Shown here in pieces: positions 637 through 34,527 of a DNA stretch of 34,912 nt (positions within the stretch are counted from its first letter, which is position 1; each line of letters begins with the position of its first letter). The notes beneath the pieces are model-generated. The model ran no database searches. It saw only the letters and a program-made list of their open reading frames with translations, and had not been told where the DNA came from. The stretch lies in NCBI GenBank assembly GCA_030670005.1, contig DAOVCL010000002.1:1-34912 (forward strand), read 5' to 3'. This stretch comes from Candidatus Zixiibacteriota bacterium (GTDB taxonomy: Bacteria; SM23-81; DAOVCL01). Both the position numbers and the translations under genes were made by a program.

Positions 637-1367
637 CTTGTGCACCGTCAGGAGTATAGGGAGAGGGTTGCAGAATTGAGCGAGGAACTGAGGATCCCCC
701 TTCTGGTTGAAGCCCCGGATTATACTTACGGTCAAAATGGTGAGCCCAGATATTACAATGCCGTATTTCTCTTTCGGCCTCAAGTTGGGGAGGTGCAAAA
801 TTACTACAAGATCCAGCTTGTCCCCTTCTCAGAGAGGATACCATTCGATGAGAGGCTACCCATACCGAAGAGGATAAACCTGGGGGAGGCCGACTTCTCC
901 CCTGGAAGAAGGCTCACCCTTTTCGATAGTGGCAAGGGCCATTTTGCCGCCCTGATCTGTTTTGAGGCCATCTTCCCCAATCTGGTAAGAGCGTTTGTAA
1001 ACAGGGGATAAGATTTTCTGGTAAATGTCACCAACGATGCCTGGTTTGGTAGGACATCAGGCCCCTTTCAGCACGCGGAGATTGCCAAGTTCAGGACAGT
1101 AGAAAATCGCATATATATGGCCTGCTGTGCCAACACCGGGACATCCATCCTCTACGATCCCTATAGCAGGACGATAGCCCAAACCCGGCTCTTTACCAGG
1201 AAAAGCCTGGTTTTGGACCTCCCCCTGGGGGGGAGAAGACATTCTACACCCAATGGGGGGAATGGTTTCCAAAGCTCTGTCTGGTCATAACGGTACATTT
1301 CGGAATTTCTTGGAAATTCCGAAATGTCAGGGGATGTTTGAAGGGGATAGGTCCCCTTCAAGAGTGA
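625..1367 (+). pseudogene. lnt: Apolipoprotein N-acyltransferase (Lnt) remnant: C-terminal CN-hydrolase domain only, with an in-frame stop and a frameshift
   Basis: The ORF reads YNAVFLF..YYKIQLVPFSERIPF..FAALICFEAIFPNLVRAFVNRG, then TAA at 1009..1011. It continues in the same frame as DFLVNVTNDAWFGRTSGPFQHAEIAKFRTVENRIYMACCANTGTSILYDPYSR, the Lnt signature. After the G7 run at 1227..1233 the expected C-terminus KTFYTQWGEWFPKLCLVI is in another frame. The N-terminal polytopic membrane domain is missing. Confidence 0.7.
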
Positions 1368-1458
1368 CAGCGGAGCGATCCGAGTGAGCGCAGGATTGCG
1401 AAGCGCCAGAGGGTCGAGAGACCCTATGGGAAGTTAGCGACCGAAGGGAGCTAAGTTC
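1295..1458 (+). repeat. Structured ~165-nt repeat element, copy 1 (perfect 15-bp-arm palindrome plus two hairpins plus a conserved 3' end)
   Basis: This is a direct copy of 25243..25408. It begins with ACATTTCGGAATTTC-ttg-GAAATTCCGAAATGT. It then has hairpins TTGAAGGGGA/TCCCCTTCAA and AGGGTC-GAGA-GACCCT, and ends GCGACCGAAGGGAGCTAAGTTC. Confidence 0.75.
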
Positions 1459-5332: not shown

Positions 5333-6364
5333 ATGGAATCCAAGCTATTCCTCTCCTCCTCCCCCCATATCAGGGATGATGTCTCCATCCCCAAGATAAT
5401 GTGGACGGTGAACATCGCCCTTCTACCTGCCTTGTTGGGCTCTCTCTGGTTCTTTGGTCTGAGGGCCCTATGGTTGGTGGCCGTGAGTATCCTAACTGCG
5501 GTGGGAACCGAGGCCCTGCTGGAGAAGCTGATGAAGAAGCCTTTAACCATCTACGATGGATCTGCAGTGATCACGGGGATACTTCTCGCCTTTAACCTAC
5601 CTGCCGGCGTTCCTCTCTGGATGCCTGCTGTGGGGTCGGTGGTTGCCATTGGCATAGGGAAACAGGTTTTTGGAGGATTGGGTTTTAACCCTCTGAATCC
5701 AGCCCTTCTGGGAAGGGCATTCCTGATGGCCTCCTGGCCGGTGCATATGACCACAGATTGGATCCTCACCCGTTATGGAACGATGAACGGGATTGACACG
5801 GTGACCAGGGCCACTCCTCTTAAAGTCTACCAGTTGGCCAGGGACTACCTCTCCGCCCACCAGGGAGTATCCCCGGAGCAGTTATCCCAGGCCAAGGTCA
5901 CCCTCACCCATCTATCCCAGGCCTACAGAAACCTCTTCTGTGGCAATGTGAGCGGCTCCCTGGGGGAGACTTCTTTCCTCCTCCTCTTCGTAGGAGCATT
6001 TCTCCTCTTCCTCAAGGGGTATATCGGCTGGAGGATACCGGTATCCTTCATCGGCACCGCGGCCCTGGGAGCCTGGATATTCGGCGGGACAGGTAGGCTG
6101 TTTACCGGTGATCCCCTCTTCCACATCTTGGCTGGAGGGCTGGCCTTGGGGGCCTTCTTTATGGCCACCGATATGGTCACCTCCCCTGTTACCCCCAAGG
6201 GGAAACTTCTATTCGGATTTGGCTGTGGATTGATCACCATACTTATCAGATTGGTTGGGGGCTACCCAGAGGGGGTCTCTTACTCCATTCTCTTGATGAA
6301 CTTAATTGTCCCACTTTTGGATAGATATACCAAGCCCAGAAGGCTGGGGGAGGTGAGAAGATGA
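5333..6364 (+). CDS. rnfD: Rnf electron-transport complex subunit D
   Basis: 343 aa polytopic NqrB/RnfD-type protein (SSSPHI..., DTVTRATPL, FFMATDMVTSP, SILLMNLIVPLLD). Its start abuts the rnfC stop. Confidence 0.92.
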   Translation: MESKLFLSSSPHIRDDVSIPKIMWTVNIALLPALLGSLWFFGLRALWLVAVSILTAVGTEALLEKLMKKPLTIYDGSAVITGILLAFNLPAGVPLWMPAVGSVVAIGIGKQVFGGLGFNPLNPALLGRAFLMASWPVHMTTDWILTRYGTMNGIDTVTRATPLKVYQLARDYLSAHQGVSPEQLSQAKVTLTHLSQAYRNLFCGNVSGSLGETSFLLLFVGAFLLFLKGYIGWRIPVSFIGTAALGAWIFGGTGRLFTGDPLFHILAGGLALGAFFMATDMVTSPVTPKGKLLFGFGCGLITILIRLVGGYPEGVSYSILLMNLIVPLLDRYTKPRRLGEVRR

Positions 6365-6942
6365 AAGAGATAATCAAGTTTGGTGGCCTTCTCCTCTTAA
6401 TTACCGGAGTGGCCGCTGGTCTTTTGGCCTATGTGGACTCTCTGACCAAACCGAAGATAGAGGAGCAGAAGAGGTTAGAAGGGGAGGAGGCCCTAAGCTG
6501 GGTTCTCCCCCAGGTCAAAGAGGGGGTGATCATCCATGTTTGCTCCAAGGGCAAGACCCTTTACTATATCGGCTATGCCCACAAGGACACCACAGATCTG
6601 GTTGGATACGCCTTCCTGGCCAAGGGCACGGGTTACTCCAGCGATATTGAGACGATGGTAGGGGTAGACACCTCTGGGGTGATCACCGGGATAAGGATAC
6701 TCTCCCAGAAGGAGACCCCGGGGCTTGGCTCCCGCATTCTGGAGGTAAAGCCAGGGGAGACGGAGCCCTGGTTTCAGCGCCAATTTAAGGAGAAGAAGGC
6801 AGATCAGGTAGCGGTAGAGAAGGATGGGGGAGAGATAAACAGCGTCACCGGCGCCACCATCTCCTCCCGGACAGTGACCAACTCCATCAAGGAGGGGGCC
6901 TTGAATTTGGCAAAGCTGATCGAAGAAAGCAAAGAAAAATGA
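6361..6942 (+). CDS. rnfG: Rnf electron-transport complex subunit G (FMN-binding)
   Basis: 193 aa with an N-terminal anchor. It has ETPGLG and the FMN attachment block SVTGATISSRTV. It overlaps rnfD by 4 nt. Confidence 0.9.
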   Translation: MKEIIKFGGLLLLITGVAAGLLAYVDSLTKPKIEEQKRLEGEEALSWVLPQVKEGVIIHVCSKGKTLYYIGYAHKDTTDLVGYAFLAKGTGYSSDIETMVGVDTSGVITGIRILSQKETPGLGSRILEVKPGETEPWFQRQFKEKKADQVAVEKDGGEINSVTGATISSRTVTNSIKEGALNLAKLIEESKEK

Positions 6943-7535
6943 GGACAGGAAAGGTGTTCGTCAAGGGGATCTACCAGGAGAACCCCATCTTCCGGCTGGC
7001 CCTGGGCCTCTGTCCCTTCCTGGCAGTGACCAGTTCGACAGAGAATGGGTTGGGAATGGGATTGGCAGCCACCTTCGTCCTGGTAGGCTCAAACTTCATC
7101 ATCTCCCTGGTGCGCAAGCTAATTCCCCAGAGGATTAGGATCCCTTGTTTTATCGTGGTGATAGCCACCTTTGTCTCCCTGGTAGAGATGGTTATGCAGG
7201 CCTACTCCCCTGGGTTGTATAAGAACCTGGGCATATTCGTCCCCTTGATTGTGGTCAACTGCATCATCCTGGGAAGGGCGGAGGCCTTTGCCAGCAGGAA
7301 CGGGGTGGGTCTCTCCCTGCTCGATGGGTTGGGAATGGGGGTTGGTTTTACTCTGGCCCTGGTGATTATCGGGGTCATCAGGGAGCTATTGGGATCGGGA
7401 AAGATCTTTGGGCACATCATCCTTGGTTCGGGATATAACCCGGCCCTTCTCTTCATCCTCCCTCCGGGCGCCTTCCTCACCATTGGCCTTCTTATGGGGC
7501 TGTTTAACTATGTAGAAGAAAGAGCAAAGAGATGA
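6939..7535 (+). CDS. rnfE: Rnf electron-transport complex subunit E
   Basis: 198 aa NqrD/RnfE-type protein ([40 protein letters not shown]). It overlaps its neighbours by 4 nt. Confidence 0.9.
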
Positions 7536-9154: not shown

Positions 9155-9164
9155 GAATTAAGAA

Positions 9165-9187
9165 CTTAGCGCCCTTCGGGCACTAAG
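9165..9187 (+). terminator. Hairpin downstream of rnfB (possible terminator)
   Basis: CTTAGCGCCC-ttc-GGGCACTAAG is a 10-bp stem with one mismatch. The trailing T-tract is weak. Confidence 0.35.
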
Positions 9188-9208
9188 TTCAAAAGTTGAG
9201 CTTTTCAT

Positions 9209-10365: not shown

Positions 10366-10596
10366 ATCAGGAAATTTCACCAGATCTGGCATATCTGGAG
10401 ACGCATCGGACAGGCTATTGGCGACTGGGTTGCCCGAGTCGTGTTGACGGCTTTCTACTTCACGCTTTTTGCCCCTTTCGGCCTGGGGGTGCGGCTATTG
10501 AGCGACCCACTGGCGATCAAGCGCAAACATAAGGCACATTGGCTGGAACGCACAACCCATGATTTGACCTTGGACGACGCACGGAGGCTCTCCTGA
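10366..10596 (+). CDS. Small hydrophobic protein translationally coupled to the carbamoyltransferase (no canonical start codon)
   Basis: The open frame reads IRKFHQIWHIWRRIGQAIGDWVARVVLTAFYFTLFAPFGLGVRLLSDPLAIKRKHKAHWLERTTHDLTLDDARRLS. Its TGA shares one base with the carbamoyltransferase ATG (TGATG). AGGAGG lies 8 nt before an ATC at 10366, and there is no ATG, GTG or TTG in the frame. I recall similar small proteins upstream of carbamoyltransferases, but have not verified this. Confidence 0.4.
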   Translation: MRKFHQIWHIWRRIGQAIGDWVARVVLTAFYFTLFAPFGLGVRLLSDPLAIKRKHKAHWLERTTHDLTLDDARRLS

Positions 10597-12440
10597 TGTA
10601 CATACTGGGCATCTCGTGCTACTACCACGACGCGGCAGCCTCCCTGCTGCACGACGGCATGTTGGTGGCTGCCGCCGAAGAGGAGCGTTTCACCCGCAAG
10701 AAGCACGACTACAGCTTCCCCGACCATGCCATTGACTTCTGCCTGCGTCAAGCCGGGATAACTGGGCAAAACCTGGACTTGGTAGTTTTCTATGAGAAAC
10801 CGCTGCTCAAGTTCGAGCGTATTCTCATGACCACATTGCAGACCTTTCCCCAGTCATGGGACGTCTTCCGCGAGTCCATGATTGGTTGGTTCAACGAGAA
10901 GCTGTGGATCAAAGGCCACATCCTGACCAAATTGAATATTCCCAATGAGAAGCTGCTCTTCATCGAGCATCACCTGAGCCATGCTGCCAGCGCCTTCTTC
11001 TGCTCACCCTATGAGGAGGCGGCCATCCTGACGGTAGATGGAGTTGGGGAGTGGACGACGGCAACGGTGGGTCGGGGAAGGGCCTTCTGGGCAGAGGGGC
11101 AGGGGAGGCAAGGAGAGAGTGAGACAAGGGGCAAGAAAGAGCAGTCTGCAACCCGCAGTAATTCGATTGAGCTTTTCGACGAGGTGAATTTCCCCCATTC
11201 CCTGGGCCTGCTCTACTCTGCCTTCACCGCCTTCCTGGGCTTCCGGATCAACAATGGCGAGTATAAGGTGATGGGCATGGCACCCTATGGGCGGCCCAAC
11301 CGGGTGGAGGACATCTATAAACTCATCGAGGTAGGCGACAACGGCGAATTCCGGCTGAATATGGACTACTTCTGTTTCCACCACTCCATCTCACGCACTT
11401 TCAACGGCAATTTTGTGAAGCTATTCGGTGAGCCGCGAGTGCACGAATCGGCCTTCTACACCCTCATTACTCATCCAAAGCAAGATCATCCCCAATGGAA
11501 TGAGGCCAGAGCCCAGAGCAATCAGCACTATGCTGATATCGCCGCCAGCATCCAGAGGGTGACTGAGGAGACGTTGCTCAAGATGGCCAGCTATGCCCAC
11601 CGGTGTACCGGCCTGAAAAAGCTGTGCATGGCCGGTGGTGTGGTGCTGAATTCGGTGGCCAACGGCCGCATCCTGCGCGAGACGCCTTTCGAGGATGTCT
11701 TCATCCAGCCAGCAGCGGGCGACTCCGGTGGGGCCCTGGGGGCGGCCCTATACGCCTACCATGTGCTGCTGGGTCAACCACGCAAGTTCGTGATGGAGCA
11801 TGCCTACTGGGGCCAGGGCTACTCCCCCGATGAGGTACGAGCCGAAATTGAGGCCACGGGCCTGCCCTACCAGCGGATAGAGGATCCAGAGCGGCTGGCG
11901 CAGCTAATGGTGGATGACCTGCTGGCTGGCAAGGTGATCGGCCTCTTCCAGGGACGCTTCGAGTGGGGGCCACGGGCACTGGGTAACCGCTCCATCCTGG
12001 CGGATCCGCGCCGGGCGGAGATGAAGGCTATCGTCAATGCCCGCATCAAGTTCCGCGAGCCCTTCCGCCCCTTCGCGCCGGCAGTGTTGGAGGAACGGGC
12101 CGCCGACTTTTATGCCGACCTTGACGACCCAACCCGTCACTATCCCCTTCGCCACATGCTCATGGTCTACCACACAAAGGACGGCCAGGGTGAAAAGATC
12201 AAGGCGGTCACCCACCAAGGGGGCACGGGGCGCTTGCAAACGGTGCGCCGGGAGTGGAACCCGCTCTATTACCGCACAATCGAACTGTTCGGCGAAGCCA
12301 CGGGGGTGCCGGTGCTGCTCAACACCAGTTTCAACCTGCGTGGTGAGCCCATCGTTAACACGCCAACTAATGCGCTGGACACGTTTGCGAAAAGCGGGAT
12401 TGAGACGCTATACATGGATGGATATGTTATCCGTAAGTAG
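10596..12440 (+). CDS. Carbamoyltransferase (NodU/CmcH family)
   Basis: 614 aa. The N-terminus is MYILGISCYYHDAAASLLHDGMLVAAAEEERFTRKKHD. Other family blocks are HHLSHAASAFF, FPHSLGLLYSAFT, KLCMAGGVVLNSVANG, EWGPRALGNRSILADP and LLNTSFNLRGEPIV. It is GC-rich relative to its neighbours. Confidence 0.9.
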   Translation: MYILGISCYYHDAAASLLHDGMLVAAAEEERFTRKKHDYSFPDHAIDFCLRQAGITGQNLDLVVFYEKPLLKFERILMTTLQTFPQSWDVFRESMIGWFNEKLWIKGHILTKLNIPNEKLLFIEHHLSHAASAFFCSPYEEAAILTVDGVGEWTTATVGRGRAFWAEGQGRQGESETRGKKEQSATRSNSIELFDEVNFPHSLGLLYSAFTAFLGFRINNGEYKVMGMAPYGRPNRVEDIYKLIEVGDNGEFRLNMDYFCFHHSISRTFNGNFVKLFGEPRVHESAFYTLITHPKQDHPQWNEARAQSNQHYADIAASIQRVTEETLLKMASYAHRCTGLKKLCMAGGVVLNSVANGRILRETPFEDVFIQPAAGDSGGALGAALYAYHVLLGQPRKFVMEHAYWGQGYSPDEVRAEIEATGLPYQRIEDPERLAQLMVDDLLAGKVIGLFQGRFEWGPRALGNRSILADPRRAEMKAIVNARIKFREPFRPFAPAVLEERAADFYADLDDPTRHYPLRHMLMVYHTKDGQGEKIKAVTHQGGTGRLQTVRREWNPLYYRTIELFGEATGVPVLLNTSFNLRGEPIVNTPTNALDTFAKSGIETLYMDGYVIRK

Positions 12441-13674: not shown

Positions 13675-13997
13675 TTGCCTGGACAGCTCTGCTCACTACT
13701 GCCCGCCATGCTACATGCTGATGGTCTACCCCTGGAAGGACGGCCAGGGGGAGCGTAATCCAGGTGGTCACCCATGAGGACGGGACGAGATGCCTGCAGA
13801 GGGTAGGCCAGGGATCGAACCCGCTCTACTACCCCCGATCGAGCTGTTCGATGAAAGAACGGCTTGCCGGTGTTGCTCAACACCAGCTTTAATCTGCGTG
13901 GTGAGCCATTGTCAATACGCCGGAGAACGCGCTGAACACCTTCAGTAAGAACGGCATTGACACGCTACACATGGGTGGGTTTGTGATCAGAAAGTGA
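13675..13997 (+). pseudogene. 3' remnant of a second, diverged carbamoyltransferase gene (multiple frameshifts)
   Basis: The nucleotide sequence is clearly alignable to 12130..12440. One matching pair is catgctgatggtctacc..aaggacggccaggg..gtcaccca..gaacccgctctacta against the corresponding stretch of the intact gene. Another is ttgctcaacaccagctttaatctgcgtggtgagcc against ctgctcaacaccagtttcaacctgcgtggtgagcc. The reading frame is broken. The remnant ends ..TLHMGGFVIRK-TGA. Confidence 0.7.
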
Positions 13998-16366: not shown

Positions 16367-16410
16367 GTTATTCTGGGGACACCATACTGTTATTCTGGGG
16401 ACACCATACT
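16367..16410. repeat. Perfect 22-bp tandem duplication (gttattctggggacaccatact x2)
   Basis: Read directly at 16367..16388 and 16389..16410. Its last 12 nt (ggacaccatact) recur inverted at 16592..16603. Confidence 0.85.
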
Positions 16411-16451
16411 CATTTCTTGAATTAGACATGGCACAAAGCTAAATCATCTAT

Positions 16452-16603
16452 ATGGCAAGAATAGCAAGGATCGTCCCCCTTTTCCCACCCCATATTAGCT
16501 AACGGGCCAAGGGGAGGCTCCAAAACCATCTTCTCAGATGAAGGCTATACAGCCTACAAAAAAACCAGGGAGAAAGCCAAAAAAATAAATGAGTATGGTG
16601 TCC
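16452..16603 (+). pseudogene. IS200-like / REP-associated tyrosine transposase (Y1, RAYT-like) N-terminal stub, frameshifted and 3'-truncated
   Basis: MARIARIVPLFPPHIS-stop is followed, in the +1 frame, by GPRGGSKTIFSDEGYTAYKKTREKAKKINEYGV. This compares with the family N-terminus MARxxRxxxPGxPHHxTQRGNRRQxxFFxDEDYxxYLxLLxExxxKYGV. A 12-bp inverted repeat flanks the stub. It is followed by (tcgaatt)x3. Confidence 0.55.
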
Positions 16604-16630
16604 TCGAATTTCGAATTTCGAATTTCTCCA

Positions 16631-16792
16631 CTATTACTCAGGGTCACATTATAGTTAGCACATTGTCATTTCAAGTGTCATTGCGAGACTTGTCCCGAGC
16701 GCAAGCGAGGGAACCCGACGAAGCAATCTCATAGTCCAAACCTCCATTCAGCGTTTTGGATTGCTTCGCTGCGCTCGCAATGACATGCAATC
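16631..16792 (+). repeat. Long-hairpin 'cattgcgag...ctcgcaatg' repeat element, copy 1
   Basis: It shares the leader attact.tcagg.tcaca.tatagtt.gcacattg..atttcaag.GTCATTGCGAG with 23277..23465. Internal arms are GTCATTGCGAG/CTCGCAATGAC and GAAGCAATC/GGATTGCTTC. Confidence 0.65.
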
Positions 16793-16827: not shown

Positions 16828-17637
16828 TCATTTGTGTTCGTAGAGGTGTACATCTTGTTGAGGGAATGGGATGGAGATTCCCTCAGCATCGAACCGCTTT
16901 TTCACATTTTCTGTTGTGTCAAAGTACACATCCCAGTAGTCCTCCGTCTTGACCCACAGGCGAACCACAAAATTTACGCTGCTGTCTGCGAGCTCCTTGA
17001 CGGCGATCATCGAAGCGGGATCCTGCAGGATACGACTATCTTTCTTCACAATATCCTGCAAGACTTGCTTTACCTTCTGGAGGTCATCTGTATAACTTAC
17101 ACCGACTACCAGATCCACACGTCTCGTATCCTTAGCAGAATAATTGATGATGTTGTCTCCCATCAACTTGGCGTTAGGTATAATGACTGTCTTATTGTCT
17201 AGGGTCCTGAGTTGAGTGGTAAAGATATGAATTTCTTCAACAATCCCGGTAGCTCCCGCGCCCTCGATGAAATGACCTACCTTGAACGGACGGAATACGA
17301 TCATAAGAAAGCCAGCAGCGAAATTTGCCAGCCCGCCCTGCAACGCTAAACCGACGGCAAGACCAGCAGCACCGATAACGGCTATAAATGAGGTAGTTTG
17401 AATTCCAAGCTGGGCAAGCGCCGCTATGATGACAAAGGTCAGTAATGCAATGTAGGCCAGATTGCCGACAAAGGAGATAAGAGTAGGGTCTATATTTCTT
17501 TTGATCAGTATTTTCTTTACAAGTTTTCTGATTGCCTTTGCAATCCAGCGGCCAACGATGAGAACAATAATCGCCGCCACAATCTTAAGACCATAGAATG
17601 CTCCCCATTCCTGCAATTTTGCGATGATAGCATCCAT
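16828..17637 (-). CDS. mscS: Small-conductance mechanosensitive channel (MscS family)
   Basis: 269 aa with three N-terminal TM helices. The pore helix is AAGLAVGLALQGGLANFAAGFLMIVFRPFKVGHFIE. The beta domain is GIVEEIHIFTTQLRTLDNKTVIIPNAKL. Confidence 0.88.
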   Translation of the reverse strand: MDAIIAKLQEWGAFYGLKIVAAIIVLIVGRWIAKAIRKLVKKILIKRNIDPTLISFVGNLAYIALLTFVIIAALAQLGIQTTSFIAVIGAAGLAVGLALQGGLANFAAGFLMIVFRPFKVGHFIEGAGATGIVEEIHIFTTQLRTLDNKTVIIPNAKLMGDNIINYSAKDTRRVDLVVGVSYTDDLQKVKQVLQDIVKKDSRILQDPASMIAVKELADSSVNFVVRLWVKTEDYWDVYFDTTENVKKRFDAEGISIPFPQQDVHLYEHK

Positions 17638-17829
17638 AAAATGCCCCCTTCCTGTCTTTGCTATTCATAAATCAGGTATGAGAAAACCGAAAAAAGCATA
17701 AAACTACTAATAAAGCTTCGTTAGGCACAGTTATCCGACCAGATGCGTCTTCCCTTCAGTAGGGTCTTAAGATCTTGGGTGAAACAATAGCTTGGTCTAA
17801 CGAAAATAGACGATCATATCGCTTCGTGA

Positions 17830-17857
17830 ATACAGGGGGGGCTAACCCCCCCTGTAT
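17830..17857 (-). terminator. 12-bp GC-rich hairpin immediately after the lipoprotein gene stop
   Basis: ATACAGGGGGGG-ctaa-CCCCCCCTGTAT. There is no clear U-tract. Confidence 0.35.
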
Positions 17858-18717
17858 CACCTCCTTTTATACTGCGGGTTATTAGGATCTGGCTGATAAG
17901 CTGCCTTGAACCTTATCCAGTTATGACTCTCATCATCGATGCCTGTTATTTGAATCTTTGCGTAGTGGTTATCTCCTGTCCTTACAGCGTAGACATGTCC
18001 CATAAGTGCCTCGATCGAATGGCCAGACTCCGCATAACCATTCGTAGGTGCCTCATCAGCATCGTCCCAATCACTCATGTAACCAATATCCTGAACCTCG
18101 CCCCCGTTTATCCCGTCTATCCACGCACGCACCCCTGCTCCAGGATTGAATCGCTCGCACATTATATCTCCGTCACCTGAGGGGGTATCATAATTGGCAT
18201 CTAAACCAGTACAGTCAACCACGCTGAAATCTGAAAACTCAAACCCTGCCTTTGTCTGGTCAGACTGATAAGCGTAAATAGTTTCCTCACCCGTAGTCTC
18301 ATCCCGTGGAGTATCTTCTATAATATTGCTCGTGTAACTGGTCTTACTCCAGTCATCCATAGAAGCTACCACAAGGAAGGAATATGTAACCCCATTCTGC
18401 AGCCCTTCTATATCCACCCAGATCTGGTCTGCGCATGGGGCATCAACCCCCAGAGAGTCGACCTGAACAAATTGCCCCGGGATAGTCTCCCCTGGATCCC
18501 CTTCATACTCCCCCTCAGCGTAATAAATTCTGTACCCGTTCAGCTCATCCTCGTAGTTACTGCACCACCAGAATAGAGTAACCTTCTCATCTCCTGTTAT
18601 GCTGCTCAACCCAAGAGGTGGAGGAAGTTTGGATGGGGCTACTATTTCTTCCTTCTTGGTACATCCTGAAATCAAAAGTAACAATAACATCCCTGAAACT
18701 GCGAAAATTGATCTCAT
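17857..18717 (-). CDS. Lipoprotein of unknown function (possible Ig/FN3-like N-terminal domain)
   Basis: AGGAGG lies 6 nt before the ATG at 18717. The signal peptide and lipobox are MRSIFAVSGMLLLLLISGC. The track ORF (to 18831) runs in frame into an upstream mscL stub. Confidence 0.6.
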   Translation of the reverse strand: MRSIFAVSGMLLLLLISGCTKKEEIVAPSKLPPPLGLSSITGDEKVTLFWWCSNYEDELNGYRIYYAEGEYEGDPGETIPGQFVQVDSLGVDAPCADQIWVDIEGLQNGVTYSFLVVASMDDWSKTSYTSNIIEDTPRDETTGEETIYAYQSDQTKAGFEFSDFSVVDCTGLDANYDTPSGDGDIMCERFNPGAGVRAWIDGINGGEVQDIGYMSDWDDADEAPTNGYAESGHSIEALMGHVYAVRTGDNHYAKIQITGIDDESHNWIRFKAAYQPDPNNPQYKRR

Positions 18718-18762
18718 ATTGCCTCCTTTTTTATTGCTAATTCGATGGTTTTTTCCCCTCTC

Positions 18763-18831
18763 CCCTATGATTCCCACAGCCAAGTCAACCGGGTTGAGCT
18801 GCGTGGCAAATTCCTTAAACTCTTTTAACAT
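18763..18831 (-). pseudogene. mscL: N-terminal stub of the large-conductance mechanosensitive channel gene mscL
   Basis: MLKEFKEFATQLNPVDLAVGIIG matches the conserved MscL N-terminus M-x-KEFKEFAxRGNVVDLAVGVIIG. It has its own AGGAGGTG RBS. Similarity ends after about 23 codons. Confidence 0.55.
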
Positions 18832-18977
18832 AATGACACCTCCTGTAAAGTTGGTTTGTAGATTTGGGTTTGGTCTGAGTCGCCACGCTATGCCTTATTT
18901 TATATCACCTCCTTTCAACCCCCAGATACTCATCACATTGTTCATCTATTCCTCCTGCCCTCTACCCTATAGGATCA

Positions 18978-19850
18978 TCAGTTCAGCTTGTATGTCAGTC
19001 CCAGTGACAGGGTTTGCTTGAAGCGTCCCCCCAGGTCGACCTCCTTGTCGTAGAGAAGCTGCATATAGAGGTTCACCATCAGGTATTTGGTAATGTTGGC
19101 CGTGAATGTGTTCTCCCAGTTGACATCTGGAGATTTCCAATCGTTATTATTATCATCCGATTCTGAGGAGAACAGTGCCCTAAATACGGTAAGTTTGCTG
19201 GTGTAAGTAATTCGCTCCTGAGCCATTGAAGTCTTGAACCCGGTATCGAATACCAAGCCGCCGTCGTTGCTCGTCTGGGTCTCGCGCTCGTTAGTTAGCG
19301 TATCCACCAGCATATCTCGATTCAGGTGCTGCCTCAGCCCGGCGCCGAAACGAGCAGTCCACTCACGCTTCTCCTCTTTGATCAGAACCTTAGCCACGCC
19401 GAAACTTTCGGTGAAGGTAACCGGATTTAGGAATCGGTTCTTCAATGTGTCGCTAATGTCAAGAAACTGGGTTTCTACCCTACCGGAGGCAAAAGGATCC
19501 ACGAATCCCCCCAAGGTGAAGCGGAGAACCGACTCAAAGTCAATGAGATCAGTCGATTTCATTGGCTTGGCCCAGGCCTTAGTCTCCTTGTCCTGGTTAT
19601 GGGTTTGACCAAAAGAAAGCTTGAGGGTGTTTTTGTTGTGAACCTTGGCATAAAGCTGTTTCTCTGCGAGAGAGTTAGAGTTGAATGTCCAGGAGAGGGC
19701 ACCTACCTCCCCTCCAACCCAATTGTTGCTGTATGCATTCTGCGTCAGCGTGAGGTTAGCGTCAACCGCTATTGTCCAGGGCTCTGCTAAGATGGACAAG
19801 GGCATGGCAATAACCAACACAGCCACCGCTACGATAAACAGATTCCTCAT
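18978..19850 (-). CDS. Outer-membrane beta-barrel protein, DUF3078-like
   Basis: Signal peptide MRNLFIVAVAVLVIAMPLSILA. The motif QNAYSNNWVGGEVGALSW resembles the DUF3078 sNWxxGG block. Alternating beta-strand patterns end in LSLGLTYKLN. The family call is from memory. Confidence 0.55.
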   Translation of the reverse strand: MRNLFIVAVAVLVIAMPLSILAEPWTIAVDANLTLTQNAYSNNWVGGEVGALSWTFNSNSLAEKQLYAKVHNKNTLKLSFGQTHNQDKETKAWAKPMKSTDLIDFESVLRFTLGGFVDPFASGRVETQFLDISDTLKNRFLNPVTFTESFGVAKVLIKEEKREWTARFGAGLRQHLNRDMLVDTLTNERETQTSNDGGLVFDTGFKTSMAQERITYTSKLTVFRALFSSESDDNNNDWKSPDVNWENTFTANITKYLMVNLYMQLLYDKEVDLGGRFKQTLSLGLTYKLN

Positions 19851-20069
19851 TCTCCCCTCCTTTGTCCGATGGTTTTCCTTATCCGCTAAAACTTATTTAT
19901 GTCCGCTATAATTCCATTTTGAAGGATAACTGTCAACCAATACCTTGGTAAACAGTAGTTCGTCCCTTTAAAGCTTGTCTTTCTTCCTCTACTTTAACCA
20001 ACTCTAAAATCACCTTGGGCTTTGCCACTTAAGAGATTAAATCGAAAAGAACTATTACACTACTCTTTT

Positions 20070-20912
20070 CTAAAAGATGCTGAATTTTAGATACCTTTTG
20101 GGGTTTTGCTTGATATCCTTGACCAGGCTATCCAGGTTCTGGCTCAGGCTCTTTAGGTTCTCGTATAGGGCCTCATCCTGGGAGAGCTTCCCCAGGGTTC
20201 CACTTCCCTGCTCCATCCTTCCTGCTATCTCCTTTAAGGAGGAGGATACCTGGGCCAGATTTTCGGTTGCCTCCCTTAAAGAGCCTAAGGTTGCCTCTAT
20301 ATCCTCTCCCTTCAGGCCTGATGATGTCTGGGCAAGGTGGACCAGTAAGGTGTCTAAGGTCTCCCCGTTCTCCTTCAGCCTTTGGGTAAAATCCCTCAGA
20401 TCGCTCAGGCTCCCTTGAATATTTACCCGGGTCTCCTGGCTGAGGACCAATTTCAGCCTGGCCAGGACATCCATCAGGTCTTCCCCCACTGGGCCAACGG
20501 TGGAGGTTAAGGCAGAGAGTGGGGATTCATAGACCCCAGCGATATAATCGCCATCCTTGAGGATCTCAGAGCTCTGCCCCGGCTCAATGGCCATCTCCTT
20601 CCTTCCAAACAGGCTTGAGCTCCTCAACCTGACTATAGAGTCAAAGGGAAGGCGAAGATCAGATTCGATCCGAAGAGGAACTAATACCTCCTCCCCCTGC
20701 AGGGACATCTTCCCTACTCTCCCTACCCCCATCCCCATCACGGTGACCCTATCCCCCTGCATCAATCCGCCAACATTTCTCAGCTTCGTCTTCAGCACAT
20801 ACCTATGTCTCCTTATCGACACCCCTCTGAGGAACATATCCCCTAAGAGGAAGACCAGGAAGGCAATGATGATGGCCATACCAACCTTCGTCTCCGTCTT
20901 AAACCTTCTCAT
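20070..20912 (-). CDS. mlaD: MlaD/MCE-family lipid-transport substrate-binding protein with a coiled-coil tail
   Basis: MRRFKTETKVGMAIIIAFLVFLLG forms the anchor. The MCE domain is LKTKLRNVGGLMQGDRVTVMGMGVGRVGKMSL. GGGGGAAT precedes the ATG at 20912. The gene lies downstream of mlaE and mlaF. Confidence 0.8.
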   Translation of the reverse strand: MRRFKTETKVGMAIIIAFLVFLLGDMFLRGVSIRRHRYVLKTKLRNVGGLMQGDRVTVMGMGVGRVGKMSLQGEEVLVPLRIESDLRLPFDSIVRLRSSSLFGRKEMAIEPGQSSEILKDGDYIAGVYESPLSALTSTVGPVGEDLMDVLARLKLVLSQETRVNIQGSLSDLRDFTQRLKENGETLDTLLVHLAQTSSGLKGEDIEATLGSLREATENLAQVSSSLKEIAGRMEQGSGTLGKLSQDEALYENLKSLSQNLDSLVKDIKQNPKRYLKFSIF

Positions 20913-20975
20913 ATTCCCCCCTTCCATACTTTGAGCTAACCACAAATTGTCTCACTACCGGATCATCTGCACTCA

Positions 20976-21661
20976 TTAGCTCCTCAGCTCCTCCGGGGTT
21001 CCCTCAAACCTAATCACCCCCTGGTGTAGCATAGCCATCCGATCGGCCATCCGAGAAACAACAGCGATGTCATGGGTAACTATAATAGAGGTAACAGACA
21101 GCTTCCGGTTTAGGTAATCAATAAGTTGGTGTATCCTTCCGGCGGTGTGATCGGATCAAGGCCGGTGTTAGGCTCGTCATAGAGGAGGAATTGGGGGTCC
21201 ATAGCTATGGCCCTGGCGAAAGCCACCCTCTTCTTCATCCCTCCGGAGAGCTGGGCGGGGTACTTATCCTCCACCCCTTCTAACCCCACATGGCTCAAAC
21301 ACCAGCCTATTTTTTTTCTTATCTCCTCCTCGGAAATCCTTGTATGCCTCCGTAGACCCAGGCCTACATTCTCATCCACGGTAAGGGAGTCAAATAGGGC
21401 AGAGCCCTGAAAGACCATACCAAATCTCTTCCTTATCTCCACCAATTCCTTATATTTAATCTTGGTTATATCTTGGCCATCAAGGAGAACAGAACCGGAG
21501 TCTGGTTTCAGGAGACCGATTATTATCTTCAAAAGGACGCTCTTTCCACAGCCGCTCTCCCCTATTATGGCCACAGTCTTCCCCTCACTGATCGATAGAT
21601 CAACCCCCCCGAGCACCTGAAGCTCCCCAAAGCTTTTTACCAGACCCATTAGCTCTATCAA
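20976..21661 (-). CDS. mlaF: ABC transporter ATP-binding protein MlaF, apparent frameshift near 21146 (pseudogene or assembly error)
   Basis: The TTG start at 21661 gives MIELMGLVKSFG. Walker A is GESGCGKS, the signature is LSGGMKKRVAFARA and Walker B is FLLYDEPNTGLDPIT. The frame then breaks. The remainder (AGRIHQLIDYLNRKLSVTSIIVTHDIAVVSRMADRMAMLHQGVIRFEGTPEELRS-stop at 20976) is in another frame. Confidence 0.8.
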
Positions 21662-21663
21662 AA

Positions 21664-22436
21664 CTAAAACCCCAAAAGGGTAGAGGCCCAGAAATAGTCT
21701 AAGATCAGTATGATGATAGAGGCGATAACCACTGACTGGTTGCAGCCCTCCCCACACCCTCTGCCCCCTGACGGGCATAATAACCCTCATAACAACTGAC
21801 AAAGGTTATGGTCAAACCGAAAAACACTGCCTTGATTAGGCCAAAGCTGAGATCAAATGTCTGGTAGACCGACTTAAAGCCGTAGAAGAACTGACGGGTG
21901 GTAACATTCGTCTTTGCTATAGAGGTTAACCAACCGGCGGTTATCCCAACGGCATCGGCAAAGATGGTGAGGACTGGGACCATAATCATCCCCGCCACCA
22001 CCCGAGGGAGAATGAGATAAGAAACTGGGTTGAAGGCCAAAGACTCCAGGGCATCTATCTGCTCAGTAACCCTCATCGTTCCCAGTTCAGCGGCAATGGT
22101 GGCTCCCACCTTACCTACCAAGATGAAGGCAGCCAGAAGGGGGCCAAACTCCAGAAAGATAGTTTTCTCCATAGTGCTCCCCAGAAAGTATAAGGGAGCG
22201 TAGCTCTTCAGGTTGTAGGCGGTCTGCACCGAGACGGTCATACCGGCCAAGATGGAGATGAAAAAGATAATGGTCAAAGACCTGTTCCCAATGACCAACA
22301 TCTGCTTGGCCAGGGGCTTGGAGTAAGTGCGAAAATCAGGAACGGCCTTCAATATCTCCCAGAGAAGCTTAACCATCCTTCCCAGATGGAAGGAAAACTT
22401 TATTACCTCCTTACCGATAAAGGAAATTGGATTCAT
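21664..22436 (-). CDS. mlaE: ABC transporter permease MlaE, apparent frameshift near 21733..21740 (pseudogene or assembly error)
   Basis: MNPISFIGKEV... through ...VSCYEGYYARQGAEGVGRAATS reads as MlaE. The conserved tail VVIASIIILILDYFWASTLLGF-TAG (stop at 21664..21666) is in a different frame from the track ORF (21705..22559). Confidence 0.8.
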
Positions 22437-22479
22437 AGCTATATGGCTCAGGGGACCAGAGGTCCCCTGAGCCTTCCCC

Positions 22480-22635
22480 TTAAGCTGATTTGCTTCTGCA
22501 CCGCCCACCCCAGACCCCCAGAATGAGCACCACAATACCTGTAATAAGAAGGGGCACAAAGCTCCTCAATCCGGGGACAAAGGAAACGATGATTATCCAA
22601 ACCCCTATGATGGCATTAATCCAGGTCCGCCACAT
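22480..22635 (-). CDS. 51-aa two-TM small membrane protein (below the ORF-track size cut-off)
   Basis: AAAGGAGGTG lies 6 nt before the ATG at 22635. The product is MWRTWINAIIGVWIIIVSFVPGLRSFVPLLITGIVVLILGVWGGRCRSKSA. It sits directly upstream of mlaE. Confidence 0.4.
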   Translation of the reverse strand: MWRTWINAIIGVWIIIVSFVPGLRSFVPLLITGIVVLILGVWGGRCRSKSA

Positions 22636-23276
22636 ACTTTTTCACCTCCTTTCTGATCCGAGCACAACGTCTATTTACCCGTCTTGCCCTTTATATCAAA
22701 TTATTGGGAAATCTGCAAGGCTTTTTTAAAAATTTGAAATCAAATACCCAAATTTCACTAATCCAGACTTCGTCAAACCGTTTCCCTTGTGAGTTTTAAA
22801 CTGCGTTTCTACAATGAGTTACAGGATGGCTCTCAAAATTGGACAAATTAACTTTCTAAAAAGACCCGAATTTGACTTGGCTTTGTTGGATTAGCAACAA
22901 ACAACATTTAGGAGAAATGTCATTATAAATCGATGTCCTAATTGAACGAAGTCAAACTAAAGCCTTATAGCGCAAATCTTGCTATTGACGCTAACTTTCA
23001 CAAGAGGAAGTGTCCAAAAAAAAGGGGCTTAATTACAGCTCAATTTGACCAGGTCTCTAATCCGTGCTCCCAGAATGATCGCTCTGGGCTTCTCCGAGCG
23101 GAGAGCATCCGCTGTGACCTTTTAACCCAGATGGATCTTCACACCCAGCCATTTGGCGGTAGTGGTAGATTTGGAGGGTCGAGACCTCGCCGGTGAAGTG
23201 GGTCAAATTGGTGGCAACGGATAGGAAGAGGATCCGGTTTTTTCGGCCAGTGCCCCTATCCCACCATCCGGGAAAA

Positions 23277-23465
23277 GCATTACTATTCAGGTCACAATAT
23301 AGTTCGCACATTGGTATTTCAAGGGTCATTGCGAGGCTCGTCCCCAGCGCAAGCGAGGGAACTCGACGAGCAATCTCATAGTCTCAACCCCCATTCAGGG
23401 GTTTGGATTGCTTTGCTGTTCCCTCACTTCATTCGGGGCTACGGCTCACTGCAACGACTTGTAAT
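23277..23465 (+). repeat. Long-hairpin 'cattgcgag' repeat element, copy 2 (full-length arms)
   Basis: It has the same leader and left arm as 16631..16792. The right arm gttccctcacttcattcggggctacggctcactgcaacgac is the imperfect complement of gtcattgcgaggctcgtccccagcgcaagcgagggaac. Confidence 0.65.
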
Positions 23466-25112: not shown

Positions 25113-25242
25113 AATTATAGCTAAAAACTGATGGGATTTCAATCCCTTTTGGCTTGACAAGGGGGACAAATTTACTTTTTTTGCAGACAGTTCGCAACTT
25201 ATAACCACGGACCAGCACGGAAAAACAGGGAGCAGTAATAAG

Positions 25243-25408
25243 ACATTTCGGAATTTCTTAGAAATTCCGAAATGTAGAGGGTTGTTTGAAGGGGGTAAGC
25301 CCCCTTCAAGGGTGACAGCGGAACAATCCAAGCGAGCGGAGGATTGCGGGGCGCCAGAGGGGCGAGAGCCCCTATGGAGAACTTTCGCGACCGAAGGGAG
25401 CTAAGTTC
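25243..25408 (+). repeat. Structured ~165-nt repeat element, copy 2
   Basis: Direct copy of 1295..1458, with compensatory substitutions in two hairpins (TTGAAGGGGG/CCCCCTTCAA and AGGGGC-GAGA-GCCCCT). Confidence 0.75.
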
Positions 25409-30090: not shown

Positions 30091-30567
30091 TTAGTCTTCT
30101 CCCATTAACTCTTCAGGTGTGCAAATAATCGGACATTCATATCCTCTTGATTTGCAAACTGATTTAATTCCGATTGATATTTCAGCATTTGCCAGGTGAG
30201 CGCAGTTCCATGTTAAGAGAAACTGTATGTTGTGAACAGTTGCAATGGCGATGTGTGCAGCATCTGTGGCAGCTTTCTGAGGAATAACACCAGCGTCCAG
30301 AATTGCAGAGGCCAAATCTGTTACATCATCGGTAATATCCAACAGGTCAAATTCAGACAAAATTTCAAGTCTTCTTTGTGATGCTTCTTCGTCCCCTTGC
30401 CCTGTCTCATCAATCACAAACTGCGAAATAAAAATTTCAAAATTATGCCTTCGCTTTTCCCACCATTCATGGGTAATTTGTTGATGTGCAGCAACAATCA
30501 AATCCCTACTTGGTCGGGCAGTCTGATAACTTGGAATTGTGGTTTCTAAATATAGTTTAGCTTTCAT
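30091..30567 (-). CDS. PIN-like domain protein (VapC-like toxin candidate)
   Basis: 158 aa. Acidic residues sit in PIN-like positions: LYLETTI..., VIDETGQGD and ATDAAHIAIATV. WNCAHLAN follows. The C-terminus is CTPEELMGED. Confidence 0.6.
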   Translation of the reverse strand: MKAKLYLETTIPSYQTARPSRDLIVAAHQQITHEWWEKRRHNFEIFISQFVIDETGQGDEEASQRRLEILSEFDLLDITDDVTDLASAILDAGVIPQKAATDAAHIAIATVHNIQFLLTWNCAHLANAEISIGIKSVCKSRGYECPIICTPEELMGED

Positions 30568-33588: not shown

Positions 33589-34527
33589 TCAAAATGTACG
33601 TTTACCTTTCTTCATCGCATCAATTTTAGCTTTCATTCGACCAATTACTTCGTCGTATGTGCGTAGATAAAGATTGGGAACATCAGATTGAATTTTACGG
33701 ACATCAATTGGATTTACCTCTCCCCTTCGTCCAATGATTACGAACATTTTAGGCCGATAGGCTAATAAACCGTATTTTTCATAGATTGTTTTTCGATTTT
33801 TTTCTTCGTCAAAAAATATGCTGTATTCTCGGAGTTGTGCACAGGCTTCTAATACGGCTGCCGTAAATCTAAGTCTATTTTTCTTTAATACAAATATCTG
33901 TGTTGAGGGAAGTTTCAGTTCGAGCAAATCGGATAATGAACTTTGATCAATTGGCTCTAAGACGAAATCTGGTATAAGCGAATCCCCATCATCTTTGGCT
34001 AAAACTATGTGAGGGTGTGCACTCTTGTATTCATCATTTAAAATAAAATCAGGATTTCTCTCAAAGAAATCTTGAAAATCTTTTTCTTTTGTATTCGTAT
34101 CATTTACCAGCGACTCTAGTTCTTCTACAGCAGTTCGTAACGCCATCGTTTCTGAAGAGGTGATATATAGAATGCTATGAAGATTTTGTTCATCATCAAG
34201 AAACTTATAATTACCATCAGGGCTGAGTGAGACCAGCTTAATCTTGTCACCAAAGAGAGTAAATGCAACAAATTCATGTTCCGGCAATTCTTGTGATTTA
34301 TTATCTTCTTCGGGTTCTTCTTCAGGGTCAATTCCACGAACAACATTCTCAGCCGCTGGACCATTTTTTAATTGGGTCCTTTCAAAGGTGACAACTTCAC
34401 CTTCTTTTAGCGTCTTAAAACCTTCGCCTTTTATAAAACTAAAGTGCACAAACAAATCTTCACCATTTTCATCTGTGATGAATCCATATCCCTTTTTTTC
34501 GTTAAACCACTCTACTGTGCCTTTCAT
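33589..34527 (-). CDS. Cold-shock domain fused to a Shedu-type (DUF4263, SduA-like) PD-(D/E)xK nuclease domain
   Basis: The N-terminus [47 protein letters not shown] is a CspA-type CSD with RNP1/RNP2-like blocks. An acidic linker follows. The DUF4263-like layout is [16 protein letters not shown]...IPDFVL...LLELKLP...AQLREY...[10 protein letters not shown]. Confidence 0.78.

Follow-up and report, generated by a model that had tools for sequence, protein, structure and literature searches.

Members of the IS91 family of insertion sequences (IS) transpose without target-site duplication (TSD), have two unlike ends and pass through a circular single-stranded DNA (ssDNA) intermediate. Their CTTG or GTTC target adjoins the end with one or two palindromes, and the other end is a palindrome next to the GTTC cleavage site; 89 and 82 bp of the ends are enough for transposition of mini-elements, and CTTG or GTTC makes up about 90% of the targets recovered in assays (PMC13181058). 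Palindrome-associated transposable elements (PATEs) are recognized as non-autonomous derivatives of the IS200/IS605 family, which follow the logic of a transposon-adjacent motif (TAM) and a transposon-encoded motif (TEM) (PMC10055086). Here we analyze a structured repeat of about 165 nt that occurs twice in positions 1 to 34,912 of contig DAOVCL010000002.1 from a Candidatus Zixiibacteriota bacterium (assembly GCA_030670005.1); this whole stretch of 34,912 nt is called the window. Both repeats are very probably copies of a family of non-autonomous, gene-less mobile DNA elements. By our analysis the family appears formally closest to mini-elements of the IS91 family (IS91, IS801, IS1294), with IS200/IS605 PATEs as the other close model, and membership in neither group is established.

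Two copies in the window belong to a large family

Copy 1 occupies positions 1295 to 1458 of the + strand (164 nt, full length, 167 bits with nhmmer over model positions 1 to 166). Copy 2 lies at 25243 to 25408, also on the + strand (166 nt, full length), in the intergenic region between an ArsR-family gene and tatD. An earlier note on this DNA had described them as same-strand direct copies, both intergenic, that open with a perfect palindrome, differ by paired changes in two hairpins and share their last 22 nt, and our analysis bore out each of these points. The copies are 87% identical over 164/166 nt, and both start with the palindrome ACATTTCGGAATTTC-N3-GAAATTCCGAAATGT. The stem of the first hairpin reads GGGGA/TCCCC in copy 1 (TTGAAGGGGA/TCCCCTTCAA) and GGGGG/CCCCC in copy 2 (TTGAAGGGGG/CCCCCTTCAA), and that of the GAGA-loop hairpin AGGGTC/GACCCT and AGGGGC/GCCCCT, respectively. 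The final 22 nt (GCGACCGAAGGGAGCTAAGTTC) are identical, and similarity ends at the very next base.

Five hairpins were obtained by RNA folding, with energies of −74.9 kcal/mol for copy 1 (z = −7.4) and −73.2 kcal/mol for copy 2 (z = −5.8) relative to shuffled sequences; folded as DNA, copy 1 gave −47.9 kcal/mol (z = −11.1). In copy 1 the hairpins follow one another on the + strand as H1, the 15-bp perfect palindrome (1295 to 1327), H2 (1338 to 1361), H3 (1375 to 1399), H4 (1406 to 1429) and H5 (1430 to 1458), the last of which is called the 3′ module and has the terminus GCTAAGTTC. These z-scores, together with the recurrence of the repeat at more than 100 other loci, argue that it did not arise by chance. 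The nearest relative of copy 1, locus L140, is 96% identical to it and has the same GGGGA/TCCCC variant; judged from this relationship, the paired differences between the window copies are to be read as inherited sub-family states, not as events in this genome.

Relatives were collected with two patterns. The exact palindrome, sought in a single genome of each species, brought up full-length copies from several metagenome-assembled genomes (MAGs), and half of the palindrome combined, across a gap, with the 3′ end added more genome loci and 98 metagenome contigs. A profile search of all fetched loci (designated by L numbers) yielded 108 distinct full-length sequences at 127 loci of public MAGs and sediment metagenomes, with at least 24 copies in the MAG CAZVGK01, labelled Gemmatimonadota, and 9 in JAOZPP01. 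The boundaries were sharp at both ends in all copies. Viral contigs contained only two matches, consistent with chance. The earlier note had proposed that further copies be counted and aligned and that the repeat be compared with Rfam: copies are abundant and show compensatory changes when aligned, and no Rfam family accounts for the element. At the gathering score, Rfam gave nothing relevant in the window or in 18 loci of Scalindua and Tritonobacter; with the element itself as query and E values up to 10, the best match in Rfam 15 had E = 0.29, the matches being to unrelated eukaryotic or viral models. A full-text literature search for strings of the element sequence and for transposable elements of the miniature inverted-repeat type (MITEs) in Scalindua found nothing relevant.

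Orthologous sites with and without the element

Mobility is shown directly by sites that are occupied in one genome and empty in a relative. The window itself contains an empty site at 19934 to 19955 of the + strand (CAACCAATACCTTG^GTAAACAG, the insertion point being between 19947 and 19948). Contigs L054 and L031, which are 95 to 97% identical to positions 16988 to 22993 of the window, carry a full copy exactly at 19947/19948. The site of copy 2, conversely, is empty in L076 and L074 (CAGTAATCAG^TTTACAGGG). Further filled and empty pairs are L074 versus L047/L076, L088 versus L047, L012 versus L019, and L066/L077/L026 versus L008/L009. In all six comparisons the junctions were clean and no base was duplicated, and the inserted unit was exactly A[C/T]rTTTCGG...GCTAAGTTC. 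CTAA had been considered as a possible target duplication; it was ruled out because the empty sites place the boundary after GTTC. Terminal inverted repeats (TIRs) were not found either: the 5′ end reads ACrTTTCGG, the 3′ end GCTAAGTTC, and each folds on itself. Just upstream of the insertion site, the relatives have an extra segment of about 115 nt (L054, ~410 to 530, compared with ~19920 to 19930 of the window), or else the window has undergone a deletion.

Several copies document other kinds of events. The copy in L088 and copy 2 of the window are independent insertions into the same intergenic region, 16 nt apart and on opposite strands. The L052 copy interrupts a phage-integrase gene, and nested or tandem copies are present in L117, L123, L104, L172 and L186. 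A fragment of a third copy was identified in the window at 609 to 636 of the − strand. What remains of it is one arm of the 5′ palindrome together with the loop (609 to 628), next to a target-type flank of its own (ATAACAGG, the reverse complement of 629 to 636), and this 20-nt minus-strand remnant sits exactly at the point where the lnt gene is truncated. With strain polymorphism, a fragment at the lnt breakpoint and a split integrase, the elements are active agents of genome change.

Insertion follows a one-sided target motif

The earlier note had asked whether the insertion points show a target preference, and they do. The 5′ flanks of 77 independent insertions give the consensus TAACTTG at positions −7 to −1. 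TAA occupies −7 to −5 at 37 of the 77 sites (1.35 expected), T is found at −3 at 54 sites, and [C/G]TT[C/G] stands at −4 to −1 at 15 (1.3 expected); CTTG is the commonest target tetranucleotide (8/77), and GTTC accounts for 3/77. As the motif is already there at the empty sites, it is part of the target rather than of the element. Copy 1 is immediately preceded by TAACGGT (1288 to 1294, + strand), whose TAA is where the reading frame of the truncated lnt gene stops, and copy 2 by TAATAAG (25236 to 25242, + strand), which reads TAATCAG at the empty sites of the relatives. We rejected the idea that the TAA is generally the stop codon of an upstream gene, since this is true for copy 1 and rare overall.

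The motif flanks the left end only. The 3′ flank is unconserved save for a purine-rich patch resembling a Shine-Dalgarno sequence at +7 to +10. The target consensus TAACTTG is in register with TAAGTTC, the last bases of the element itself; the terminal GTTC is nearly invariant among aligned copies, in which H5 ends with ...GCTAAGTTC at the exact boundary, in part because the search patterns fixed these bases. Other elements' ends (CTAAGTTC^) serve as targets as well, as does the sequence complementary to the H5 5′ arm (GCTAACTTC^), which explains why copies cluster. The 5′ arm of H5 (GAAGTTAGC) was considered as an internal guide. It is complementary to the consensus target, but it does not covary with the flanks, and where H5 arms are altered (W2, L093, L013, L105 and L051) the flanks are not altered to match.

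A recurring motif, (A)TAGGAATTTCCATTTT, stands directly after the 3′ end in different genomes (L034, L097, L015, L047, L155, L183 and L189). In L034 these 16 nt are also found in place of the element's start. The motif may be the 5′ end of another family.

Base pairing is conserved along the element

The structure was evaluated with an alignment of 78 distinct copies and the five-hairpin model; the copies are related, and the counts are not those of independent events. Across the alignment 97.0% of the cells pair, and in 16 of the 54 pairs both partners have changed, which concerns 78 cells. In 500 column shuffles none of the observed measures was reached, and sliding the partner columns by 1 to 3 positions lowered pairing to 32 to 52%. 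These compensatory changes agree with the view of the earlier note that structure, rather than coding capacity, is conserved. Covariation is clearest at position 3/31 of H1 (A-U 40, G-C 23, C-G 4) and in the stem of H4 (U-A 48, C-G 18, G-C 7). One-sided variants comprise 100 G·U and 38 A·C combinations, and folding is more favorable for the + strand than for the − strand, whether it is treated as DNA (−47.9 versus −41.2 kcal/mol) or as RNA (−74.9 versus −61.3 kcal/mol).

The end hairpins H1 (ACATTTCGGAATTTC...) and H5 (GAAGTTAGCGACC...) have no similarity to each other, and both reach the termini. In L003, L022, L031 and L154, a different stem has taken the place of the whole of H2, with the TTGAA/TTCAA base retained. 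What the families have in common is the 5′ TCGGAAWTTC core and the 3′ module; they differ by an exchanged H2 or a replaced middle.

The 3′ module is found in other families

A scan for the 3′ hairpin alone, with the pattern AAGTTAGCGA-N7-14-GCTAAGTTC, was expected to produce about 35 chance matches, which were those inside genes of unrelated genomes. It located the hairpin at some 15 loci of Candidatus Scalindua rubra, in other Scalinduaceae and in a Brocadiaceae MAG, and also in MAGs of other Planctomycetota, in Candidatus Tritonobacter lacicola (Auribacterota) and in Nitrospirae MAGs. In those genomes the module is always preceded by a small hairpin, TTTTGC-GAA-GCAAAA or GCTCCGAC-GAA-GTCGGAGC, at the place taken by H4 in the family of the window. 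One Scalindua family is about 170 nt long and starts with AATATATCGGAAATTCTACAA after a CTAATTT flank; it has the same TCGGAAWTTC core and the same type of target as the window family. The CAZVGK and JAOZPP MAGs contain other elements that have kept H3 to H5 and differ in their 5′ parts, and a second family (...GTCAGAAAGTCCCGCTGCAGGTGACTAAGTTC) has only the terminus in common. Within the window, a solo palindromic relative of the 3′ module (GAACTTAGCGCCC-TTCG-GGGCACTAAGTTC) lies at 9162 to 9190, between rnfB and the next gene; CTAAGTTC can be read on either of its strands.

The element represents an uncatalogued family of gene-less mobile elements, probably a superfamily, of a kind that standard MITE and IS finders miss because it has neither TIRs nor TSD. 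It is abundant in sediment MAGs, and its end module is shared with anammox bacteria.

Two side observations concern these genomes. Loci L133 to L190, from Scalindua and other Planctomycetota, share a two-hairpin unit of about 55 nt (TTTTGCGAAGCAAAAC-CAAG-AAGTTAGCGAC..GGAGCTAAGTTC) that often ends 1 to 4 nt before an ATG and that matched no Rfam family. L137, from Candidatus Scalindua rubra, has two tandem cobalamin riboswitches at 6342 to 7055 (RF00174, 88 and 74 bits).

A putative single-strand mechanism of transposition

The absence of TSD and TIRs, the unlike hairpin ends, the one-sided motif that mirrors the 3′ end and the strand-specific structure argue for single-strand transposition by an HUH enzyme, a mechanism that we favor with moderate confidence. 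Taken overall, the explanation that we judge best, and on balance probable, is a non-autonomous element moved in trans as ssDNA by an HUH-type transposase. Such a trans-acting (tyrosine) transposase would cut 3′ of TAAsTTs at the left flank, at the right end of the element and at the target, and would then join the ends as happens in elements of the IS91 and IS200/IS605 families. It would recognize two unlike ends, namely the conserved TCGGAAWTTC palindrome on the 5′ side and the hairpin on the 3′ side. Insertions would survive mainly between genes and in the same orientation as these, one possible reason being the usable Shine-Dalgarno sequence (GGGAG) in the 3′ hairpin.

Several features of the IS91 family, whose members move by rolling-circle transposition with an HUH Y2 transposase, are mirrored in the element. 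Both lack TSD and TIRs and have unlike ends, which in the element are H1 and H2 on the 5′ side and H5 on the 3′ side. The target beside the two-palindrome end appears to be loosely of the CTTG/GTTC type, the other end is a palindrome followed by GTTC, and the 165 nt of the element compare with the roughly 170 bp of ends that suffice in IS91. Unlike in IS91, three further internal hairpins are conserved, and no Y2 transposase was found for the element in the fetched loci. With PATEs of IS200/IS605, a family that transposes with a Y1 TnpA by 'peel and paste', it shares the gene-less, hairpin-ended organization, the lack of TSD and TIRs, the strand-specific structure and a possible structured RNA, as well as insertion 3′ of a short left-only motif that resembles the right-end motif, as in the TAM/TEM scheme. 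Its adjacent motif, however, is 7 nt long and loose, and no linked Y1 TnpA or TnpB was found in the fetched loci, the Y1 sequences in the window and in L181 having other ends. The proposal of the earlier note that the repeat is a non-autonomous element of the IS200/IS605 type therefore stands in part: filled and empty sites support a mobile, hairpin-ended element, whereas the IS200/IS605 assignment is not supported, the end hairpins being unlike each other and situated at the very ends.

Two other groups of repeats invite comparison. Repetitive extragenic palindromes (REPs), with the REPIN and bacterial interspersed mosaic element (BIME) arrangements and the REP-associated tyrosine transposases (RAYTs), resemble the element in being short intergenic palindromes. 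The 29-nt solo module at 9162 to 9190 and those of Scalindua look REP-like, and mosaic composites, inter-cistronic location and a presumed trans-acting HUH enzyme are further likenesses (RAYT is a domesticated Y1 HUH enzyme). The element differs in that it is not an inverted REP doublet and has no GTAG-type head motif, and no RAYT or Y1 gene flanked by modules was found in the fetched loci, where a search for inverted module pairs around a gene was too noisy to be informative. MITE-like repeats (Correia/NEMIS, ERIC, RUP, BOX) are similarly 100 to 200 nt long, numerous, intergenic and modular, are likely to be co-transcribed and can provide stop codons or ribosome-binding sites; they have TIRs and usually a duplication such as TA, and both are absent from the element.

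A number of observations weigh against single-strand transposition of the IS91 or PATE kind. The target is longer and looser than that of IS91, with TAA at −7 to −5 as its strongest part and with CTTG plus GTTC at about 14% of sites as opposed to about 90%. In IS91 the ori end is essential, whereas here it is the ter-like 3′ module that is common to all families. The end hairpins of PATEs are similar to each other and subterminal, with linker or guide segments, whereas those of the element are dissimilar and terminal. H3 and H4, inside the element, are also constrained, which is not required of simple transposon ends. The search patterns fixed the palindrome and GCTAAGTTC, and the invariance of these bases is thus partly built in; the remaining analysis is independent of them. 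The neighborhood of the elements points the same way: an all-against-all comparison of 969 open reading frames (ORFs) from about 1.25 Mb of fetched loci revealed no recurrent high-identity protein beside them, the module-adjacent ORFs tested with Pfam were housekeeping genes, among them those for AlkZ, radical SAM, ATP synthase, HrcA and Usp, and a regular expression for the Y2 motif, a weak test, had no match in the fetched loci.

Further searches for the enzyme gave the same outcome. No HUH Y2 transposase gene was found beside any of the more than 130 modules in the fetched loci, and no tnpB gene next to a module. The earlier note had suggested that a TnpA, TnpB or IscB gene might be bounded by the element ends, and none was in the fetched loci. 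With Escherichia coli RayT as query, phmmer returned one unrelated gene coding for Y1 and DnaA_C domains, which has ends of its own. The precise ends and the target motif of the element provide a handle for finding the responsible, possibly new, HUH enzyme. The phmmer match is an intact Y1_Tnp gene with a DnaA_C helix-turn-helix at 6465 to 7403 of L181 (− strand), flanked by the inverted repeats GGGGTCAGGTCTC.ACATTTTACATT; a similar string, GGGGTCAGGTCTTGC, is present in the 5′ flank of the L033 copy.

The link that the earlier note drew to a Y1 transposase stub at 16452 to 16603 of the window was not upheld. The stub has no Pfam hit, is bracketed by different inverted repeats of its own (GGGGACACCATACT...) and belongs with another repeat family, and tblastn with it retrieved only fragments of a different repeat. 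It encodes a remnant that resembles the N terminus of a Y1 transposase (MARIARIVPLFPPHIS*), in a region (16380 to 16640) with a tandem 22-nt repeat, TTATTCTGGGGACACCATACTG (two units), the inverted GAGTATGGTGTCC and then a (GAATTTC)3 run. This region looks like the wreck of a separate IS200-like element. A second, unrelated repeat family of about 130 to 180 nt is represented at 16642 to 16771 and 23290 to 23418, which are 89% identical and are built around a long hairpin (GTCATTGCGAG...CTCGCAATGAC); in L160 and L115, pieces related to it have become joined to the H4+H5 module.

Gene context of the copies

Copies are almost always intergenic and are co-oriented with the flanking ORFs in a ratio of about 2:1 (41 versus 20 upstream, 49 versus 25 downstream). 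About 20 family copies are followed by a Shine-Dalgarno sequence and a start codon 0 to 27 nt past the 3′ end, and no gene starts divergently within 30 nt of the 5′ end. Seven upstream ORFs enter the element by 18 nt and terminate at the TAA of the loop. Of the 132 unique modules, 33 are followed within 35 nt by the start of an ORF on the same strand with 100 codons or more, at +1 to +4 in 12 and at +7 to +35 in 21; in the former group the GGGAG of the module lies 9 to 10 nt ahead of the ATG, at Shine-Dalgarno distance. The conserved 3′ unit is composed of a small GNRA-type hairpin followed by AAGTTAGCGA-NNGAAN-NGAGCTAAGTTC, a stem that encloses the Shine-Dalgarno sequence. Inside the element, no match to a sigma-70-like promoter or an intrinsic terminator was found.

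Alternative explanations

The main function of the element might lie at the RNA level, as a transposable cassette for a 5′ untranslated region (UTR) or ribosome-binding site, a stabilizer or a translational operator, with mobility as a mere means of spread; the element or its 3′ two-hairpin unit would be co-transcribed with the downstream gene and kept for its effect on expression. The orientation bias is in keeping with this, and so is that of the other module-carrying families (21 in the same orientation, 6 in the opposite one), as are the frequent ORF starts close to the modules, 12 of which have a suitably spaced GGGAG, the lack of divergent starts, the tolerance of G·U wobbles on the + strand and the covariation of the internal hairpins. 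The ~55-nt unit, moreover, is nearly identical over Scalindua loci whose upstream sequences are otherwise unrelated. We nevertheless consider an RNA-level main function unlikely: the downstream genes have unrelated functions, about one-third of the copies are anti-oriented or stand at gene 3′ ends, the sites are polymorphic between close strains, and the element matches no promoter, terminator or Rfam family. A bias of this kind would also be expected of ssDNA transposition into the lagging-strand template, as established for IS608. A cis-regulatory RNA as the primary nature of the repeat, which the earlier note had listed, is unlikely with such unrelated neighbors and polymorphic sites. It is possible that the element has a secondary effect at the RNA level, for which the orientation bias and the Shine-Dalgarno sequence within the 3′ hairpin leave room. 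That the conserved 3′ unit is a functional RNA module ferried by the transposon, either a mobile 5′-UTR, ribosome-binding-site or translational-control cassette or a guide-RNA scaffold for a nuclease, seems doubtful to us; if true, hundreds of genes would have their translation or targeting rewired by way of this family.

Improbable, in our estimation, is a PATE-type IS200/IS605 derivative whose body of about 130 nt is an omega-RNA-like scaffold, with the 3′ flank as guide and TAACTTG as TAM. The RNA would end at the right boundary and be used in trans by a TnpB or IscB encoded elsewhere. The left hairpin, the multi-hairpin body that ends at the boundary ahead of a variable flank, and the one-sided adjacent motif without TSD fit this arrangement, and PATEs are reported to often encode omega RNAs that are acted on in trans (PMC10055086). 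Against it stand end hairpins unlike those of IS200/IS605, an adjacent motif of 7 loose nucleotides where 4 to 5 strict ones are expected, and the absence of long same-strand ORFs ending in the scaffold at 81 genome and 98 metagenome loci, where the upstream ORFs examined were housekeeping genes. Nothing in Rfam, whose families include HEARO and IS605-orfB, was matched above threshold, omega RNA and HEARO among others, and this null result counts against known omega-RNA types. The orphan guide-RNA-like scaffold listed in the earlier note is neither supported nor contradicted by the lack of such Rfam hits and of a tnpB gene beside any module in the fetched loci. We give very little credence to a site-specific or RNA-guided recombinase, be it of the IS110 type with a bridge RNA or a tyrosine or serine recombinase acting on a shared CTAAsTT core. 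It would agree with orientation-specific insertion without TSD, with a target that resembles the 3′ end of the element and with the size of the element, similar to that of a bridge RNA. Permutation tests on k-mers, however, detected neither complementarity nor identity specific to a copy and its own flanks apart from the shared motif (P ≥ 0.03, with no consistent signal), which argues against a programmable system of the bridge-RNA type; real targets (TAATCAG, GTCCCTG, AAATTGG, GAGTTTA, GGGGTCC) are too diverse for identity with a core, the right flank is unconserved, and the two junctions have no dinucleotide in common. Also discarded were a group II intron or ribozyme, as no Rfam domain V or ribozyme hit was obtained, and an integron attC site, whose order of core and inverse core and whose consensus do not fit.

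Genomic setting in the window

Copy 1 is flanked by the truncated lnt gene and a gene for a beta-propeller protein, copy 2 by the ArsR-family gene and tatD. The lnt gene (apolipoprotein N-acyltransferase, 559 to 1290) retains only the CN-hydrolase half, without the N-terminal membrane domain, and has an in-frame stop at 1009 to 1011. Its last codons do not come from copy 1, as had been assumed in the earlier note; its TAA stop, at 1288 to 1290, is 4 nt ahead of the element. The window has no transposase gene, and a tRNA/tmRNA scan was negative, with no tRNA near the element.

Other observations in the window concern separate genes. The 3′ end of a carbamoyltransferase gene (10596 to 12440) is repeated about 1.56 kb downstream, 12151 to 12349 recurring at 13710 to 13907 with 72 to 91% identity, after a methyltransferase gene; this is probably a decayed partial duplication. 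A gene on the − strand (33589 to 34527) encodes a fusion of a cold-shock domain with the C-terminal nuclease domain of Shedu SduA and is a candidate anti-phage defense gene; near it, on the same strand, is the gene for a PIN-domain protein (30091 to 30567).

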